In this document: in pieces, positions 9,038 through 28,162 of the stretch
Layout of the letters: each line of letters opens with the position of its first letter
Position numbering within the stretch: the first letter of the stretch is position 1
Source: an uncultured delta proteobacterium
GTDB taxonomy: Bacteria; Desulfobacterota; WTBG01; CAIYCZ01
NCBI GenBank assembly: GCA_963803975.1
Contig: CAWDOY010000029.1
Coordinates: 1-60,594, forward strand
Length of the DNA: 60,594 nt
Direction of reading: 5' to 3'
Made by a program: the position numbers and the translations under genes
The notes under the pieces: model-generated
What the model saw: only the letters and a program-made list of their open reading frames with translations
The model's database searches: none
Told to the model about the DNA's origin: nothing

Positions 9038-9643
9038 TTACAGGATGACCAGTTTAACCCCGGCTTCAAATGCCTGCTGCAAATCTGCTTCTTTATTTTT
9101 AACATTGGCTATCTCCAGATTGCCGGTACTGAAAACCTCGGCGACTTTTTTCAGCCTGAAGTCTTTCAAATTGGAATCAAGCGCTCTCAAGAGCAGCGCT
9201 GATGCCGAGGGACTGAAATCACCCTGGCTTGCAACCATAACCGCTTTTTTGCCGCTTATGAGTGTCGTTGCAGTAGCGCTTAGTATTTTCCCGGATTCAT
9301 CCTTAATGGCCTGCATCTTTATGAGCGGCTGCATCCGGCAGAACAGGTTTGTCAATGCCGCGGACATGGAATGCACATGATTCGGCGAGCCGAAAATAAG
9401 CATGTCGGCTTTAATCATGCGCTGAAGAATGCCGGCCATATCATCTTTAAGCGGGCAGTCCTGACCTCCCCTGAAGGCGGTACAGGCAAGACAGCCGGTG
9501 CAGTTTTTAATATGTGCCTCATAGAGGTATATCTTTTCAACCTCCGCCTCTATTTTACTTTTTGCGCCTTCAATGACTTTATCAATCAGCGTATCAATGT
9601 TAGAACCTTTTCGCGGACTGCCGACAAATGCCATGATCTTCAT
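9038..9643 (-). CDS. Flavodoxin family / iron-sulfur flavoprotein (NADPH-dependent FMN reductase fold)
   Basis: GSPRKGSN, CTGCLAC...CPLKDDM, LIFGSP. Confidence 0.85.
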   Translation of the reverse strand: MKIMAFVGSPRKGSNIDTLIDKVIEGAKSKIEAEVEKIYLYEAHIKNCTGCLACTAFRGGQDCPLKDDMAGILQRMIKADMLIFGSPNHVHSMSAALTNLFCRMQPLIKMQAIKDESGKILSATATTLISGKKAVMVASQGDFSPSASALLLRALDSNLKDFRLKKVAEVFSTGNLEIANVKNKEADLQQAFEAGVKLVIL

Positions 9644-10500
9644 GTAAACGTTCCTCTTTCAATGAACTGTTTATTGCAGCCTATTCCTTCAGCCATTTTT
9701 CTATCAGCCGTGCAAACTCCTCCCAGTTTTTCTCCAGCATGAACATGTGGCCGCCGGGCTCGATGACCTGAAAGTCTTGAGCGCGGTAATAGCGGGCCAA
9801 GCTCCCGGCCGAGGTCTATCGGGTAATCAAGGCCGATCTTTTTCAGATCAAACCCGATCACATACACCGGGCACGTTACTTTCAGCGCGTCCACGTCCAC
9901 ATCCTTCATCTCAAAAAGCGCCCGCGCTGATTCCACGCACATCTTCTGGTGGCACATCTGCAGCACGTCCGGCTCAACGTTTCCCGGATCAAACATGTAG
10001 CCGATCAGCTTCTGCGGGTCCTTGTCAGGCTGGAGCGTCTTCTCCGTCATCACGCGGCCCTGCTCCTGCCCGCGCTTCATGAAGGCATTGAAATCAATCT
10101 TTTCCACGACTGATTTCGGCGGCGCGGTATGCAGGAGAATCATTTTTGCCGGATCCCCGGTTTCCGCGTATTTCTGCGCCAGCACCCCGCCCATGCTGTG
10201 GCCGATCAGCACCGGCGCCCTGCCGAGCCACTTGACTACAATATCTATATCTTCAAGATACGAGCTGACCCCGACATCTCCCCAGTCTTTAACCGGCTCG
10301 CTTAAATGATGGCCGCGCAGATTCAGCGCGTAGCAGGTCCAGCCGCGAGGGGCGAAGTAGTTAAGAAAATTTTCCCAGCACCAGCTGCCGCAGGTAGAGC
10401 CGTGAATAAAAAGAAGCGGGTCGGGAGACGCTTCATGTTCCGGCAGGAAGCATTCTATTGCAATGCCTTTAATCTTTATAGTCTTGGCAGTAAATTTCAT
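9640..10500 (-). CDS. Alpha/beta hydrolase (probable frameshift near the C-terminus)
   Basis: LFIHG, LRGH, GHSMGG nucleophile elbow; the catalytic His segment (PGGHMFM) lies in another frame. Confidence 0.85.
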   Translation of the reverse strand: MKFTAKTIKIKGIAIECFLPEHEASPDPLLFIHGSTCGSWCWENFLNYFAPRGWTCYALNLRGHHLSEPVKDWGDVGVSSYLEDIDIVVKWLGRAPVLIGHSMGGVLAQKYAETGDPAKMILLHTAPPKSVVEKIDFNAFMKRGQEQGRVMTEKTLQPDKDPQKLIGYMFDPGNVEPDVLQMCHQKMCVESARALFEMKDVDVDALKVTCPVYVIGFDLKKIGLDYPIDLGRELGPLLPRSRLSGHRARRPHVHAGEKLGGVCTADRKMAEGIGCNKQFIERGTFT

Positions 10501-16425: not shown

Positions 16426-17593
16426 ATGAGTCTTCAGCGCATTATTGCAATCATCATAAAAGAACTGCTCCAGCTGAAGCGGGACAAGAAAATGTATCCG
16501 CTGCTGTTTACCGCCCCGCTGGTTCAGCTGGTGGTGCTCGGCTATGCCGCAACCTTTGATATAAAAAACATCCCCACCGGCATCCTTGACCAGGACAACA
16601 CGCTACATGAGCCGCCAGTACACCGACGCGTTCTCCTATAACGGGTACTTTTCCATCCTCTACCGCGCCCGCACCCGCGACGAGCTGTGCCGCCTGCTTG
16701 ATGCCGGTGACATAAAAATAGGAATTGATATCCCGCGGGACTTCCAGAAGGACCTGAAAAAAAACCTGCCGGCGCAGGTGCACGTGCTGGTCGACGGCGC
16801 TGATTCCAACAGCGCCACCATCGGCCTCACCTATGTGAATATCATCTCCCAGAAGTTCGCTTCAAAGCTCATCCTGCAGAGCATCGACACCGCCGCCTTC
16901 CGCGAGGGGGATTTTCTCGGGACCTGGCGCCGCGCCATCGGCAAATCATTGCTGGTAGATGACGCCATGCGCATCTGGTACAACCCGGAGCTGGTGAGCA
17001 AATACTTTTTTGTTCCCGGCGTTATCTGCATGATCCTTCTGATCGTTACCACCAACCTGACCTCTTTGAGCCTGGTCAAGGAAAAGGAGATCGGCACCAT
17101 GGAGCAGCTGATGGTGACGCCGGTAAAGGCAAGCGAGATACTGCTGGGAAAGCTCATCCCCTTTATCATCATCGGCTTTTTAGACGTCATCTTCATCGTG
17201 CTTGCCGCCCTGTTCATCTTTGACGTGCACGTAAAGGGCAGCCTCGTGCTCCTGTTTCTTTTTTCCGGGTTCTTTCTCTTCTCAACCCTTGGCCTGGGCA
17301 TATTTATTTCCACGGTGAGCCGCAGCCAGGAGCAGGCCATGATCATCGCGTTCTTCTTTATCCTGAACATGAACATGCTCTGCGGCGTCATCTTCCCCAT
17401 TGAGAACATGCCGGCGGTGATCCAGTGGTTTACCTACCTTTTGCCGCTGCGCTATTTTGCGATTATTGTGCGGGGGCTTTTTCTGAAGGGCGTGGGGCTT
17501 GACGTGCTCTGGGACCAGGGGCTCTATCTGCTTTTGTGCGGGATTATCATCTTTGCCCTGAGCCTGAGCAGGATGAAGAAAAAAATCTCATGA
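16426..17593 (+). CDS. ABC-2 type permease (YbhR-like), frameshifted near 16600
   Basis: 16426..16641 plus 16586..17593 form one permease (WYNPEL, KEKEIGTMEQL). Confidence 0.88.
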
Positions 17594-17624
17594 AATAAAA
17601 GTTAGAGGAGTTGAGGAGTTAAAA

Positions 17625-17664
17625 AGTTAAGGAGCCGGGCGGTCAGACGCCCGGCTCCTTAACT
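17625..17664. terminator. 17-bp perfect inverted repeat between convergent genes (bidirectional terminator candidate)
   Basis: AGTTAAGGAGCCGGGCG / CGCCCGGCTCCTTAACT. Confidence 0.7.
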
Positions 17665-17678
17665 CAAGTATATGTCGG

Positions 17679-19274
17679 TTATTGCGGGGTGCGCGGGGCT
17701 TTCAGCTTCAGCAGCTCAAGTCTTGAGTATCCAAGGTACTTCCAGAACGCGCTGCCCCTGCTGTGGCACTTGTTGCAGCCATTGAGATTGTCTTTGGTCG
17801 CATAGCCCAGGGCATTTGCGCCTTTCTGCACGCCGTGGTCAATTTTTAGCGCGCAGACCATGGGGAAGGGTATCACCATGACAAGCGCTTTGCGCAGCTT
17901 AAAATTATAGGGCGGGCTCCCTGCCGGCAGCCAGCCTGAATCATCCATCCCTTTATTGGCGGCAGCTGCCAGATCTCCGTCAACCAGGAAGTCCTTCAGT
18001 TTGTAGGCAACCGGCTGCAGCACTCCAAGGTCAAACCAGAGCAGGGCTTCGTAGCGTTTAAACGCGGTGATTTTGGAGCCGTCATCTGTTGCGGTAACCT
18101 TTCAGGCCTCCAATCGGGCCGATGGGACAGGGGCCTTCAAGCACTCCTTCCCAGCCGCCGGATGTGCCGTTGAACCACCGGTACTCAGGAGCTACCCCGT
18201 AATGCACCTCATCTTTAAATTCATAGAAGTGCCCTTCGCTTGTGGGTGGAATGGGATAGCGCAGGTCGCGCTTCATCAGGCCGCCGGTATGGGTGATATG
18301 ACAGGTCTGACAGGCAAGATATGAGGTGTGTTTATCAAGCGTATCTTTGTAATAATTAGCAGAGCTTTTATGTGGCGAAGTGCCGTGACAATTTACGTTT
18401 GAGCAGTTAAACGTATCAGGGACTTTATCGTGCGCCCAGGAGACATTATGCTGTCCGAACTGAACTTTATGTTCGCCGATAAAATGGCACTCGGCGCACC
18501 TGATGCCTGCTTTTGCATGAACATCATTGTCAATGGTTGCGGTCTCCTGCACGCCTGAGCCATTATCATAGGTCAATTGATAGGGTTCTGCTACATAGTC
18601 AGTTCCGTATTTGAAACCTTTCGTCATCTTGCCGTCCGGGGCAAAAACCTTACCGCCGCTGTTTACATGGCAGCGCTTGCAGGCGGTTGCCGAAACTTTG
18701 CCGCCGACTGTTTTGGCGTCTTCAACGCGTGCCAGGCTCCAGTAGCCAATGCCCTGGTCATTGGTTGTAACCGTGCGCTGCCCGTCCTGGCCGCCGCCGT
18801 TATACGTCAAGCCGTGGCACAGCACGCAGTCTATCTGGTCTTTTGATTTATCGGTTACGTCAAGCGGCTGCCCCTGCAGGGTAACCGGCATTGCATCAAC
18901 TCCTGCTGCTACGTGACAAATGCCGCAGCCGGCACTCTTTTGTATACTGCGAATCAAATATGCTGGTCCACTTTTCCGCCCAGTTGGCCCCAACGAGGCC
19001 ACCAGGGAGGCCTCAGTAGCGGTTCCCTTTACCCTTTTCACCGGTCACCAGCTTGTTGGTGAACATATCATAGACTCCCTGCACGTTCCCGAGCAGGCGA
19101 TAGTGAACTGCATGGGTGAGATCATCAACCGCTGCCATCGTGACAGGGCCGACAGGTTTTTGACCCTTCGTAGGTTGTGATAAAACTATGGTCGGTATCA
19201 GCTAAGGCCTCGGGTAAACTTGTCAGGCATAAGAGCAAGACAGAAATAACCATGGAAGCTATACGGTACTTCAT
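17679..19274 (-). CDS. Periplasmic octaheme cytochrome c (OTR-like), candidate selenoprotein; 3 apparent frameshifts plus an in-frame TGA
   Basis: ATG at 19274 after AAGGAG; signal peptide; heme motifs CRPCH, CGICH, CVLCH, CKRCH, CAECH, CSNVNCH, CQTCH, CNKCH; OTR-like DVH, ACQTCH, PEYRWFNG, SKITAFK, HGV; TGA at 19015-19013 within GKGNRY*GLPG. Confidence 0.8.
18985..19012 (-). promoter_or_regulatory. Putative bacterial SECIS element
   Basis: After UGA: 11-nt spacer GGCCUCCCUGG, then stem UGGCCUC, loop GUU, stem GGGGCCA. Confidence 0.6.
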
Positions 19275-19427
19275 TGAATACTCCTTTCTTGTTTGAAGGT
19301 TTTAATGATTATAAGTGATTACCTATAATCTATACCACCTGTTATTGAAAGCGGCAATAGCCGGAAGTAATCAATTAATAAGAAAATCGCGCAATTAATC
19401 GCAGCTGGGGTGTTTTTAATCAGCCGG

Positions 19428-22004: not shown

Positions 22005-23702
22005 TCACGTGTTTCCTATGGTCTTAAACGGCCAGGCCACTATGCCCCCATCCATAAATGATACACGGGTAAACCCCTGCGCTTCGAGAATGCGCTGGGC
22101 TTCATAGCCCCTGAGGCTGACCTGACAAAAGGCAATAATCTCCTTCTCCTTTGGAATCTTCTGACATTCCTCCCGCAACCTGCCCAGCGGCATGAGCGTT
22201 ACCGCGGGGTGGTCGATGCGCAGGGCCTCATATTCTTTCGGGCTGCGCACGTCAAGCAGAATAAAATCCTCGCCGCGATCCATTTTTTCCTTAACCACCA
22301 GCGGGGAAATTGCTTTTGCAATTCCGCTGAATTTATTTAACATAACATGCGCTGCTGTTATCATATTATCCATCGCTGCAGAATAGGGCGGGGCATAGGC
22401 AAGATCAAAAGCGGCGATGTCCTGTATCGTTGCCTGCGAGCTTATGGCGGTTACGGCAATTTCAATGCGTTTGGCAGCGTCGCCGGGGCCGATTATCTGG
22501 CTGCCCAGGAGCCTGCCGCTCTTTTTATCTGCGATAAGCTTGATAATAATAGTGGCCTTTCCCGGATAATAGTGCGGACGGTCGGGCCCGGGGCAGATAA
22601 CGGTTTCTATATCAAAGCCTGAGGCTTTAGCTTCGTACTCAGACAGGCCGGTTCTGGCAATGGTATAGTCAAGCACTTTGCAAATCGCGGTCCCCAGCAC
22701 CCCGGGGAACGGACTCCCGCGGCCGGCGATGTGGTCCGCAATACACCTGCCGTGCTTGTTTGCTGTTGAGCCAAGCGGCGCATATATCTTTTTCCCGTTA
22801 ATACGATGCGTATTTTCAACGCAGTCTCCCCCGGCATAGATATCAGGGTCGCTGGTCTGCAAATATTCATTAACCTGAATGGCCCGGGTCACACCGATGG
22901 CAAGCCCTGCTTTTTTAGCCAGTTCCACATTCGGCCGCACGCCAACCGCAAGCAATACCAGATCAGCCTGCAGTTCGCGCTTATCAGTAATCACGCGCTG
23001 TATCAACCCGTCTTTGTTTCCCTCGCATCGAAGCACTTTCTCCCCGGTATAAACATGTATCCCTTTCTGGCTCACGTATCGAGCTGCCAGAAGCCCCATG
23101 TCCTTATCAAGGACAGCAGGGAAAATCCAGTCAAGCATTTCCACTACTGTCACATCTATGCCAAGGTGGTAAAATGCTTCAGCCATTTCCATGCCTACCA
23201 GACCAGAGCCGACAATCACGGCTTTTTTGACAGATTTTTCGGCGACGCGCGTCTTTATTTTCACACCATCTTCTATGGTCCTCAGCGTATAGATTCCATT
23301 GAGGTGCACCCCTTCGATGGGCGGGATGACCGGTTCCCCTCCGACCGCAAGAATCAATTTGTCATAGGGAAATTCTTTTCGTTCTCCGGTAGCCGCATGT
23401 ACAGCCTTTACTACCTTCTTCTGTCGATCGATTTCCTCCGCACAGGTATTGATATGGACGGTGACTCCCTTGACATTTTTAAAATAACCGGCATCACGGA
23501 CAACGCCGATGGCCGTGCTCATCAGTTCTTTCTCATCTTTAATTACATCTGAGATGAAATACGGCAGTCCGCATCCCCCGTAGGAGACAATGCCGCCTTT
23601 TTCAAGAATGGTTACTTCGGCTTCTGCATCAAGCCGTTTGATGCGGGATGCAGCTTTGCAGCCCGCAGCCACCCCGCCGATGATAAGCACCTTTTTGTTC
23701 AT
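22005..23702 (-). CDS. FAD-dependent CoA-disulfide/persulfide reductase with C-terminal rhodanese domain
   Basis: IGGVAAG, SYGGCGLPY, AGGDC, LAYAPPYS, DVRSPKE...FCQVSLRG. Confidence 0.9.
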   Translation of the reverse strand: MNKKVLIIGGVAAGCKAASRIKRLDAEAEVTILEKGGIVSYGGCGLPYFISDVIKDEKELMSTAIGVVRDAGYFKNVKGVTVHINTCAEEIDRQKKVVKAVHAATGERKEFPYDKLILAVGGEPVIPPIEGVHLNGIYTLRTIEDGVKIKTRVAEKSVKKAVIVGSGLVGMEMAEAFYHLGIDVTVVEMLDWIFPAVLDKDMGLLAARYVSQKGIHVYTGEKVLRCEGNKDGLIQRVITDKRELQADLVLLAVGVRPNVELAKKAGLAIGVTRAIQVNEYLQTSDPDIYAGGDCVENTHRINGKKIYAPLGSTANKHGRCIADHIAGRGSPFPGVLGTAICKVLDYTIARTGLSEYEAKASGFDIETVICPGPDRPHYYPGKATIIIKLIADKKSGRLLGSQIIGPGDAAKRIEIAVTAISSQATIQDIAAFDLAYAPPYSAAMDNMITAAHVMLNKFSGIAKAISPLVVKEKMDRGEDFILLDVRSPKEYEALRIDHPAVTLMPLGRLREECQKIPKEKEIIAFCQVSLRGYEAQRILEAQGFTRVSFMDGGIVAWPFKTIGNT

Positions 23703-23859
23703 GTTTTTCCTCCCGTTCATAAGTGAAAATCCTGCGGCACGATACACTACGTGCGGTTACCCTTCCCTCTCTCCCGTGCCAGCTCCCGGATCACGCACTG
23801 CGTTCTGAATTTGCAGTACAGCGCGGGATCGAGACACTCGCAGCACTCTTCTGTATCTC

Positions 23860-24697
23860 TCATATGAATATTTTTAACTGCGCGTCCTCGCCAAACTCCC
23901 CGGCCTTTTCTTTAAGCCAGGCTTCCATGGGTGAAAAGTCAGCTGCTATGGCCTTTTCCGGGCAGAGCCGCATGCAGTTGTAGCACAGAATGCAGGTTTC
24001 ACCGAAGCAGGGATAGGGGTCAAGGGTAATCGCGCCGGCAGGGCATATCTCAGAACATACCGGACATTTTGTACATGCGTCCTTCAGTACCTGGCGCTGG
24101 GGAAGCATCTGCCGCGCAGCCTTGATGGAGAGCTTCGCCATGGAGTTATACACATCTTCCGGCTGATAATTAAGCTCTGCGAGCGGTACGGTGCTGACTG
24201 GTTGCGCTTTAAGTTTCGCGGCAACCTTTTTGACCATCTCCGCAACCTTGTGATCATCGGCAGCATCAGGCCGGCCTTCTCCCAGCGGATGACTGAACTG
24301 CCACATGAGAGAATGGGCAGCAGCTATTTTTGCCGCGCCGATTACCGGGAAACCTTTTTTATAAAGCATCGTTCCCATTTCGTGCAGGGCAATACCGCTC
24401 GTCACCGCGCCCCAGGTCACAAACGGAACGCTGTAGCCTTTGAGCGTTGCCCGGCAAACGTTCAATAAATTCCATGACCGGGGGAACAGCATGAAACGCG
24501 TACACCGGGGAGCCGATGAAAAGCACGCTGTCCTGCCTGATTTCTTTTATCCGGGTTTTAACCGCAACAGCGTTTTTCGTGTCGCAAAGATCAATCATGA
24601 CAGGAGCTTGGCCGAGGTCAGCAAGTGTTTTTCCGATGACCTCTGCCACATGTTTGGTGCTTCCGGCAGGCGAACAGTAAATGACAAATGCGTTCAT
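23860..24697 (-). CDS. EFR1-family flavodoxin-ferredoxin fusion, frameshifted near 24460
   Basis: N-terminal YCSPAGST...GSPVY; C-terminal GRPD, CTKCPVCSEICP, CILCYNCMRLCP. Confidence 0.85.
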
Positions 24698-24895
24698 ATA
24701 ATAATCCTCTTATGAATGTTAAACAATATCCGACAGAGGAGTCAGGCAAACTGCTGATAGCCGTCGAGCCGTTCGGCCCAGGCTAGGTCAGGGCTGCAGC
24801 TAAGCTGTTAACTTATTAGGAACGAGGTGTCGGTTTCGTCTGACGCAACGTCGAAGATCAGTGTACTCAGCGGATGCATGTTTTTCACCAGCCTG

Positions 24896-27110: not shown

Positions 27111-27635
27111 ATGAAATCATCAGATGACAAAAAATACTGGAGCCCCTATCTCGCGGGAGCCTTAAGCGGTCTGGTGCTGGTTTTATCGGTCTGGGTTACC
27201 GGAAAATTTTATGGCACCTCAACCACGTTTGTCAGGGCCGCGGGAATGGTTGAAAAAATCTTTGACGCCACGCGTGTGGCCCGCATGGACTATTTCATCA
27301 AGGAAGTGCCCATGATCGACTGGCAGTGGATGTTTGTAATAGGGATATTTATAGGCTCTCTTATTGCCGCGAAAACATCCGGCACCTTTTCCTGGCAGGC
27401 AGTTCCCGGCATGTGGCAGAAGCGTTTCGGCTCAAGCATCAGCAAACGGGCAGTGGTTGCCTTCATCGGCGGTGTCATAGGAATGTTTGGCGCACGCCTT
27501 GCTGATGGCTGCCCGTCAGGCCATGGGCTGAGCGGCTCGGTGCAGCTGGCAATGAGCGGATTTGTTTCGCTGATCTGCTTCTTCATCGGCGGCGCTCTGG
27601 TTGCCCGCATTATATATAAAGGAGGTGACCGATGA
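27111..27635 (+). CDS. YeeE/YedE sulfur-compound transporter half (pair 1, A)
   Basis: WSPYLAG, FGARLADGCPSGHGLSG. Confidence 0.9.
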   Translation: MKSSDDKKYWSPYLAGALSGLVLVLSVWVTGKFYGTSTTFVRAAGMVEKIFDATRVARMDYFIKEVPMIDWQWMFVIGIFIGSLIAAKTSGTFSWQAVPGMWQKRFGSSISKRAVVAFIGGVIGMFGARLADGCPSGHGLSGSVQLAMSGFVSLICFFIGGALVARIIYKGGDR

Positions 27636-28162
27636 TGAACACACTTCTGTATGGCCTCATTACCGGCATATTGTTCGGCTTTCTTTTGCAGCGGGGGCAG
27701 GTGCTGCGCTATGACAAACAGCTGGGCGCGCTCCGGTTTTTTGATATGACCATAGTTAAATTCATGCTGTCAAGCGTGCTGGTGGGGATGATCGGCGTGT
27801 ACTTTTTGAAGGACCTGGGACTGGCAACCCTTTCAGTCAAACAGACCGTTCTCGGGGGCAATATTCTTGGCGGCCTTATCTTCGGCATTGGCTGGGCACT
27901 GCTTGGCTACTGTCCCGGGACTTCTCTCGGCGCGCTGGGTGAAGGCCGGTGGGACGGGCTGTGGGGAATTCTCGGGATGCTGGCCGGCGCCGCGCTTTTC
28001 GCGGAGGCCTATCCCGTCATAAAAAAGACGGTTTTAACCTGGGGCAACTTCGGAGCAATCACCCTGCCGCAGGCGCTGGGAATAAATCACTGGCTTATAA
28101 TCATTCCCTTTATTATTGGAGGGATTCTGCTTTTCAGATGGTTTGAGAAAAAAGGCCTGTAA
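27632..28162 (+). CDS. YeeE/YedE sulfur-compound transporter half (pair 1, B)
   Basis: GILFGFLLQRG, GGLIFGIGWALLGYCPGT. Confidence 0.9.
   Translation: MMNTLLYGLITGILFGFLLQRGQVLRYDKQLGALRFFDMTIVKFMLSSVLVGMIGVYFLKDLGLATLSVKQTVLGGNILGGLIFGIGWALLGYCPGTSLGALGEGRWDGLWGILGMLAGAALFAEAYPVIKKTVLTWGNFGAITLPQALGINHWLIIIPFIIGGILLFRWFEKKGL

Follow-up and report, generated by a model that had tools for sequence, protein, structure and literature searches.

The physiological role of the OTR-family octaheme cytochromes is described as open (PMC12949373), and it has been called cryptic (bioRxiv 10.1101/2023.04.20.537704). In OTR itself, heme II is reported to be the catalytic heme (PMC4484225); heme 2 is bound at C74-H78 with Lys56 as its ligand (PMC3769277), and a conserved Cys is given as part of the catalytic site (bioRxiv 10.1101/2023.04.20.537704). 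In vitro, OTRs reduce nitrite and hydroxylamine best, and a deletion study of 2026 reported that OTR plays no part in the respiration of tetrathionate, suggesting sulfite instead (PMC12949373). Tetrathionate is a doubtful substrate even of OTR itself. In the multiheme selenoprotein MccSep (ExtKL) of Geobacter sulfurreducens, a selenocysteine (Sec) and a heme-bound Cys are reported to reduce polysulfide, a case of Sec-mediated S-S cleavage on a heme centre (PMC13510729). A review of 2026 lists, in its Table 1, a Sec-containing TIGR04315 protein, WP_331457571.1, as "GenBank annotated" (PMC13188914), so Sec by itself is no novelty among OTR-family proteins. The RY[U]GLPG form is not among the entries given there, and no paper on a Sec-containing OTR was found in the literature searched, which leaves out most subscription journals.

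We analysed a gene in a 60,594-nt stretch of DNA (the window) from the genome of an uncultured delta proteobacterium. The clade to which the gene belongs is a real, unannotated subfamily of this known kind of selenoprotein. We are close to certain that its product would be an OTR-fold periplasmic octaheme cytochrome in which a UGA codon is decoded as Sec through an adjacent SECIS and SelB.

An octaheme cytochrome gene in four frame pieces

Three-frame translation of the minus strand, from the ATG at 19274 to the TAA ending at 17679, gave a signal-like N terminus followed by eight heme motifs, seven of the CXXCH type and one CX4CH (Table 1). The first frame piece holds the ATG, the signal-like N terminus and CRPCH; the second reads HAVHYRLLG...GEKGKGNRY[TGA]GLPGGLVGANW; the third contains CGICH, CVLCH, CKRCH, CAECH, CSNVNCH and CQTCH; and the fourth contains CNKCH and ends at the TAA. 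An earlier note on this DNA had stitched together the same gene (signal peptide, CRPCH, the TGA-containing piece and seven more heme motifs) and had held that the TGA is not one of the indels. Both points stand, and the breaks relative to intact relatives are single-base insertions near 19134, 18940 and 18090 that leave the TGA unaffected. The product of the intact relatives is about 530 aa long. A scan of the genome collection yielded two relatives, L011 and L012. At L011, which belongs to the same family, an unbroken frame of 530 codons has a TGA at the matching codon, and its alignment with the window gene (77% nucleotide identity) contains only three 1-nt gaps, each an extra base in the window; at L012, the codon matching the window TGA is TGC. 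Nucleotide identity with L024 reaches 87%. AGGAG-like sites are found upstream of the gene in most relatives. We conclude that 19274-17679 is one octaheme cytochrome c gene, the product of which is presumably exported. The gene stands alone in the window, with its own ribosome-binding site and a strong terminator. The terminator-like hairpin, which was absent from the output of a consensus scan, sits between the gene and convergent ABC-transporter genes, and a promoter scan returned none on the strand of the cytochrome gene.

Table 1. Features of the cytochrome gene and its flanks, in window coordinates
Feature	Position	Strand	Remark
Octaheme c-type cytochrome gene	17679..19274	-	read in four frame pieces here
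Ribosome-binding site AAGGAG	19281..19286	-	6 nt upstream of ATG
Probable signal peptide (Sec pathway), 25 aa with ALA at its end	19200..19274	-	by eye; N termini of relatives similar
Heme 1 motif CRPCH	19140..19154	-	
Frameshift 1, one extra base	19133..19135	-	absent from 7/7 relatives aligned
Lys of GK, counterpart of OTR Lys56	19028..19030	-	conserved column
In-frame TGA read as selenocysteine	19013..19015	-	U87 in L011
SECIS-like hairpin, 7-bp stem, GUU loop	18985..19001	-	conserved synonymous sites
Frameshift 2, one extra base	18937..18943	-	absent from 7/7 relatives
Heme 2 motif CGICH	18913..18927	-	catalytic heme by analogy with OTR C74-H78
Heme 3 motif CVLCH	18814..18828	-	
Heme 4 motif CKRCH	18667..18681	-	
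FKYG, Lys as counterpart of OTR Lys153 (KHG)	18604..18615	-	
Heme 5 motif CAECH	18484..18498	-	
Heme 6 motif CSNVNCH (CX4CH)	18385..18405	-	CXXCH in other clade members
Heme 7 motif CQTCH	18298..18312	-	
Frameshift 3, one extra base	18086..18092	-	absent from 7/7 relatives
Heme 8 motif CNKCH	17763..17777	-	
Terminator-like hairpin, 18 bp, -35.7 kcal/mol, then T run	17624..17665	-	

Errors of assembly are the most likely source of the three insertions, so that the gene is probably intact in the organism itself. The extra base of frameshift 1 is also missing in one contig of sequence run X2, that of frameshift 2 in contigs of runs X1, X2 and X3, and that of frameshift 3 in the same-genus genome G411. 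The alternative is that the selenoprotein family is real and the copy in this genome is a recent pseudogene with genuine insertions. Three frameshifts were observed against 0.32 expected in one gene at the genome mean (3 of 168 test genes carried as many), which speaks for decay, as do an additional TGA at a different, non-Sec codon in G411, which lies 38 nt from a contig end and could mean decay in the genus, and a truncated, frameshifted gene copy at locus L037. Weighing against decay, frameshifts are spread through the assembly: 26 of the 168 genes of the related genome G035 found in the window genome (15%) were frameshifted (36 events in 58,853 residues), compared to 1 of 181 genes in the reverse test for frameshifts in G035, and selA, an EF-Tu copy (both in two frames) and the adjoining ABC permease are likewise broken. 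Isolated one-base gaps in the genome comprised 27 extra versus 10 missing bases, an insertion bias. The substitutions also point to purifying selection, with 7 non-synonymous versus 37 synonymous changes and no stop specific to the window gene, compared to 12 and 47 for the closest relative's own changes, and the SECIS is intact. We consider a pseudogene improbable.

The ABC permease (window 16426-17593) is frameshifted relative to L024 and L028, and a flavodoxin/ferredoxin-like gene and a hydrolase (window 23860-24715 and 9640-10500) look frameshifted by eye. Since the assembly is indel-rich with an insertion bias, other frameshift findings from this genome call for caution. When sequence runs were searched for the window, no reads of its source sample turned up, and the best share of its words was at most 0.17. 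The four runs compared with the window contained contigs of relatives, none spanning the whole gene; the 40 run rows listed (372 more exist) contained no other letters at 19013-19015, which does not count as evidence. A contig of the RNA run X19 covers 18905-19132, but this does not demonstrate that the gene is transcribed.

The in-frame UGA, its hairpin and the decoding machinery

Relatives were collected from a metagenome scan (25 loci, 18 of them covering the codon) and from searches of 401 genomes of the phylum and 42 of the class. Repeats were merged in the codon count. Rows left out of the analysis were those of L019 and L040, which repeat L018, those of L081 and L084, and those of eight loci lacking the codon region (L027-L030, L033, L035, L037 and L140). 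Homologues with Cys or TGA at RY[C/U]GLPG, on which the Sec reading in the earlier note hinged, were indeed found: of 22 distinct relatives, 20 have TGA and 2 have TGC, with no TAA, TAG or other codon in the column, and the surrounding motif was GK(G/S)(N/D)RY[U/C]GLPG. The UGA is thus aligned with a Cys codon in homologues, the pattern by which a selenoprotein is recognised. In each of the nine TGA genes that are complete, the frame continues past the TGA without another stop, for a product of about 520-550 aa. As the note had also expected, gene callers split the gene: in the protein collection, 34 of 36 matches with 57-100% identity to an intact query begin downstream of the codon, and the two full-length matches are Cys forms, one being the query. 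Database entries for the downstream part are 390-440 aa long and are labelled hypothetical or cytochrome c3.

Were the TGA a true stop or an error, with the two halves forming separate proteins, such stand-alone entries for the downstream part would be expected, and the thermodynamically unexceptional hairpin (see below) would also suit that reading. It is contradicted by the two relatives with Cys in one continuous frame, by 20 independent sequences that keep TGA and never have TAA or TAG, and by the downstream part, which is without signal peptide, heme 1 and ligand Lys; we give it virtually no credence. Judging from these alignments, the in-frame TGA at 19015 almost certainly specifies selenocysteine. 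In a FastTree phylogeny (unrooted, with SH-like support only), the two Cys forms group together and are nested inside the TGA forms, suggesting that Sec preceded Cys within this clade. This unrooted tree contains 7 changes between U and C and does not fix the number of Sec origins.

The hairpin was reproduced as the earlier note had drawn it, with an 11-nt spacer, a 7-bp stem (UGGCCUC/GGGGCCA), and a GUU loop. Its folding energy is -9.8 kcal/mol, and 18 nt lie between the UGA and the loop, which opens with its G at the 19th base. The published bSECIS rules give a loop of 3-9 nt, a stem of 4-16 bp, a G in the first two loop positions, a distance of 16-37 nt from the UGA and an energy of at most -7.5 kcal/mol (PMC13188914), and the window hairpin falls within all of these ranges. 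By itself, the hairpin is weak evidence; an equally good one lies behind 32 of the 2251 TGA triplets in the window, and a 56-nt fragment folded no better than its shuffles (z = -1.0) and had a different minimum-energy structure. The outermost U-A pair is open in 4 of 19 distinct rows, leaving a conserved core of 6 bp.

Conservation at synonymous sites is strong and supports the SECIS identity that the note had proposed. Among 17 TGA relatives, which have a mean amino-acid identity of 66% and are mutually related rather than independent, hence no p-value, third-position conservation in the four stem codons is 100, 100, 100 and 94%. At 97 other fourfold sites it averages 58%, and 94% is attained at 4 of them. 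The third base of the loop varies among the TGA relatives. Both Cys relatives differ at stem sites in ways that break the stem. Only one pair had changed on both sides, and this was in a Cys row, so the support for a SECIS comes from conservation and not from compensation.

A search of the window genome for selA, selB, selC and selD, the machinery on which the Sec reading depends, found all four above their cut-offs: tRNA-Sec scored 72.5 bits (cut-off 47), selA is split over two frames in this assembly, and selD carries a TGA of its own. Hairpins also accompany the UGAs of this selD, two Fdh genes and an HdrA-like gene, and three of these hairpins are, like that of the window gene, of a 7-8 bp type with a G-first 3-nt loop. 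Six of the seven genomes that have TGA at the codon or belong to the sister clade contain selA (the window genome, G000, and G035, G108, G405, G409 and G197); the exception, in which no selA was found, is G404, a 79%-complete genome with TGA at the codon. Both G035 and G108, which have TGA, contain selA and selB, and neither gene was found in G172, a genome of the TGC type that is 97% complete. A cytochrome c assembly gene was present in all four genomes tested.

Fold, probable active site and proposed chemistry

By score, the window gene is not a member of TIGR04315; two intact relatives scored 78.3 and 85.7 bits against a cut-off of 375, and there was no better match. A phmmer search of the PDB with a single intact relative returned no relative, and a profile of 99 relatives matched 1SP3 at E 5e-100. 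The AlphaFold model of the L011 protein (pLDDT 88.7) had 1SP3, the structure of Shewanella oneidensis OTR, as its sole clear match (Foldseek E 6.6e-19), with a VIA Z of 24.6 and an rmsd of 3.4 over 385 residues. The predicted structure, for which the earlier note had suggested comparison with OTR, thus has the OTR fold, and the modelled protein belongs to the OTR structural family by fold. Eight heme motifs, the second motif and the axial Lys are all OTR-family features present in the gene.

We take Cys64, Asp150 and Lys153 of OTR, numbered by counting on the 1SP3 chain, to line its active site. The GK Lys is conserved in all 11 full-length clade members and in all 28 canonical OTRs, as is the counterpart of Lys153, which is also K in 63 of 70 other relatives. 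Seven His residues outside the heme motifs are invariant in the 11 full-length clade members. In 20 of the 70 more distant relatives, the heme 2 ligand column has Met instead of Lys, which would change the ligation of the catalytic heme. The Sec lies five residues after the heme-ligand Lys. The earlier note had put it in place of the active-site-proximal Cys of an OTR-like enzyme, and this part of its claim fared unevenly: MAFFT, BLASTP and four of four hhalign runs set NRY[U] on NNF[C], and relatives with GKINDFC, which have the identical five-residue spacing, bridge the two, but the hmmsearch alignment to 1SP3, with its loop ungapped, puts the Sec opposite Asn61, three positions from Cys64. 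The aligned sequences make it likely that the Sec position is that of OTR Cys64.

In the mechanism that we propose, seven hemes would be bis-His electron carriers and heme 2, held by the GK lysine, is probably catalytic, with Sec probably at the place of OTR Cys64. Beside heme 2, the selenolate would attack a polysulfide or polythionate at an S-S bond, or else a selenium oxyanion, and heme 2 would reduce the resulting selenosulfide, so that sulfide or thiosulfate is released. Electrons might reach the heme chain from the quinol pool through a cytochrome b/multiheme module; whether the enzyme works in this way as a whole we regard as an even question. Reductive S-S cleavage is our best guess at the activity, favoured by analogy with MccSep, and we lean, if only slightly, toward a Sec-containing octaheme cytochrome that cleaves S-S bonds as the best explanation as a whole. 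Counting against it are the unsettled substrate of OTR itself, the loss of OTR Asp150 and His154, the lack of a sulfur-carrier or sulfur-reductase gene as conserved neighbour and the failure to find dsrA in four of four host genomes. What the data show directly is the codon pattern, the SECIS conservation, the Sec machinery, the fold and the conserved ligands; Sec incorporation itself, export, and the active-site geometry, substrate, direction and partners of the enzyme are inferred.

The same selenoprotein might instead rely on the iron of heme 2 to act on a small oxyanion (nitrite, hydroxylamine or sulfite), with Sec only tuning or protecting the site, either by donating a proton or as a cap that resists oxidation. 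The in vitro preference of OTRs and the suggestion of sulfite in vivo (PMC12949373) accord with such iron chemistry. So do the retention of a Lys-ligated heme 2 and the Lys153 counterpart, the failure of a search at E 1e-30 to find an NrfA-type gene in the host and in 41 of the 42 genomes of its class, and the Ser, Tyr or Gly found at the Sec/Cys column in many distant relatives. Within this clade and the canonical OTRs, however, that column is exclusively U or C, and Sec occurs there in three separate tree branches. Sec is also costly and usually marks a catalytic redox residue; its recurrence at the Cys64 column in three branches thus points at that residue. We regard iron chemistry as rather unlikely.

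Quite improbable, in our view, is a Sec that serves as the sixth ligand of the heme 2 iron (Lys/Sec or His/Sec), giving a chalcogen-ligated heme like those of TsdA and SoxA that would open for substrate or act as a low-potential electron carrier. The position of the residue, five from the axial Lys and strictly U or C, in a loop three residues shorter than that of Shewanella OTR, would suit ligation, and His/Cys-ligated catalytic hemes are described in MccSep, TsdA and SoxAX (PMC13510729). Heme 2 of OTR, however, is reported to be penta-coordinated (PMC9250108), so the OTR Cys is not a ligand, and the Sec of MccSep is described as lying beside the iron and not on it.

The surroundings of the gene in relatives fit a periplasmic respiratory role while naming no substrate. 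At L012, L018 and L021 the gene adjoins a cluster of multiheme, cytochrome b and beta-propeller genes; a homologous cluster in the window genome, on contig G000:C19 at about 14000-37400, has at least 10 multiheme cytochrome frames together with cytochrome b and beta-propeller genes and is a candidate electron donor module. The gene precedes a formate dehydrogenase at L011 and a NiFeSe-type hydrogenase with cytochrome b at L014 and L015. A methyltransferase and a carboxymuconolactone-decarboxylase-family gene are nearby in the window and at L014, L015, L023 and L024. Across all loci there was no conserved operon partner, and no sulfur-carrier or sulfur-reductase gene was a conserved neighbour. 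An eight-CXXCH lipoprotein cytochrome is encoded directly upstream of the gene in two loci (L011:80-1258 and L014:4611-5789); it had no match at E 1e-15 in the window genome. Sulfur-handling genes are found 3-9 kb upstream in the window (22005-23747 and 27111-28162): one for a CoA-disulfide-reductase-like flavoprotein with an apparent rhodanese part at its C terminus, and a YeeE/YedE-like gene pair. In most relatives they were not seen beside the gene.

A further-reaching proposal is that the clade represents a Se-dependent terminal reductase of an unrecognised S/Se respiration in dsrA-less Desulfobacterota, with the Sec either acting on the iron of a Lys-ligated catalytic heme or bound to it directly. 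dsrA was not found in four of four host genomes. We think this unlikely; if true, the recruitment of Sec in three branches would show that the OTR superfamily serves in truth to cleave chalcogen bonds rather than to reduce nitrite.

Relation to other selenoproteins and octaheme cytochromes

Among the 401 phylum genomes, 28 of 67 matches above the TIGR04315 cut-off contained one TGA. Thirty such loci were fetched (L067-L096), and in all 15 that have a TGA it falls at N(N/S)F[U], a column probably equivalent to the Sec column of the window gene; the Sec of WP_331457571.1 is presumably at NNF[U] as well. In a subgroup of canonical TIGR04315 proteins, heme 2 is immediately preceded by an additional Cys (SNWCRCTSCH). 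The window clade is separate from the canonical Sec-containing TIGR04315 proteins, joined by a long branch of 1.14 changes per site with a support of 100, and has a different motif (RY[U]GLPG) and SECIS sequence. Two genomes, G108 and G409, carry a window-clade gene and a canonical Sec OTR together, hinting that the two kinds have different jobs.

The long branch also separates the window clade from a third Sec branch, identified from one locus (G197:C7; L050/L117) with a TGA at L117:1483 in GMMESY[TGA]APPNTVVGHNW and a weak hairpin of -3.5 kcal/mol, in a genome that has selA. Its protein is 65% identical to a truncated Anaeromyxobacter protein. About 20 truncated database proteins of 300-360 aa, one from Anaeromyxobacter diazotrophicus, resemble the downstream halves of the third branch.

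What appeared to be a broken gene is read here as one gene, almost certainly for a selenoprotein. Because 34 of the 36 close database matches are truncated and labelled hypothetical or cytochrome c3, metabolic reconstructions of these sediment bacteria miss the enzyme. The natural Sec and Cys versions, which are 65% identical, offer a direct test of the role of the residue.

The concept itself is not new, with a Sec-containing OTR already catalogued and one multiheme selenoenzyme solved. That enzyme, MccSep/ExtKL (NF040886, 9WT8), resembles the window protein in being a periplasmic multiheme cytochrome c with a UGA-encoded Sec (PMC13510729), in being split by gene callers and in occurring mostly in Desulfobacterota. 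It is described as having five hemes, a His/Cys-ligated heme 2 and its Sec at residue 325, near the C terminus (PMC13510729), whereas the window family has eight motifs and Sec at residue 87. MccSep gave a weak, motif-level match to the family profile (E 4e-5), was not among the listed Foldseek matches to the L011 model, and its NF040886 profile did not match the intact relatives at E 0.1; in the 42 class genomes NF040886 had no match, and neither did the control. We rejected an identity with MccSep/ExtKL on the number of motifs, the position of the Sec and the lack of an NF040886 match.

MmcA of Methanosarcina (TIGR04314) belongs to an OTR-related fold family, and there was a weak profile match to it (E about 1e-7). 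It is described as an electron conduit without heme 2 and the Lys (bioRxiv 10.1101/2023.04.20.537704), both of which the window protein keeps. The nearest known protein is OTR of Shewanella oneidensis (SO4144, 1SP3), which shares with this clade the eight heme motifs in the same order, the Lys ligand of heme 2, in all likelihood a residue at the Cys column, the counterpart of Lys153 and the pattern of distal His. Identity is only 21-24%; this clade is longer by about 20 residues ahead of heme 2, carries an insertion in front of KYG and has a GK-to-Cys spacing of 5 as opposed to 8 in OTR. A Cys pair, C382 and C473 (GPCP at 18124-18135 and MVCA at 17850-17861), is invariant in the clade, absent from canonical OTRs and possibly a disulfide. 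Asp150 and His154 of OTR are not kept (KVF...KYG), so that the pocket differs from that of OTR, and the clade has Sec where OTR probably has its Cys.
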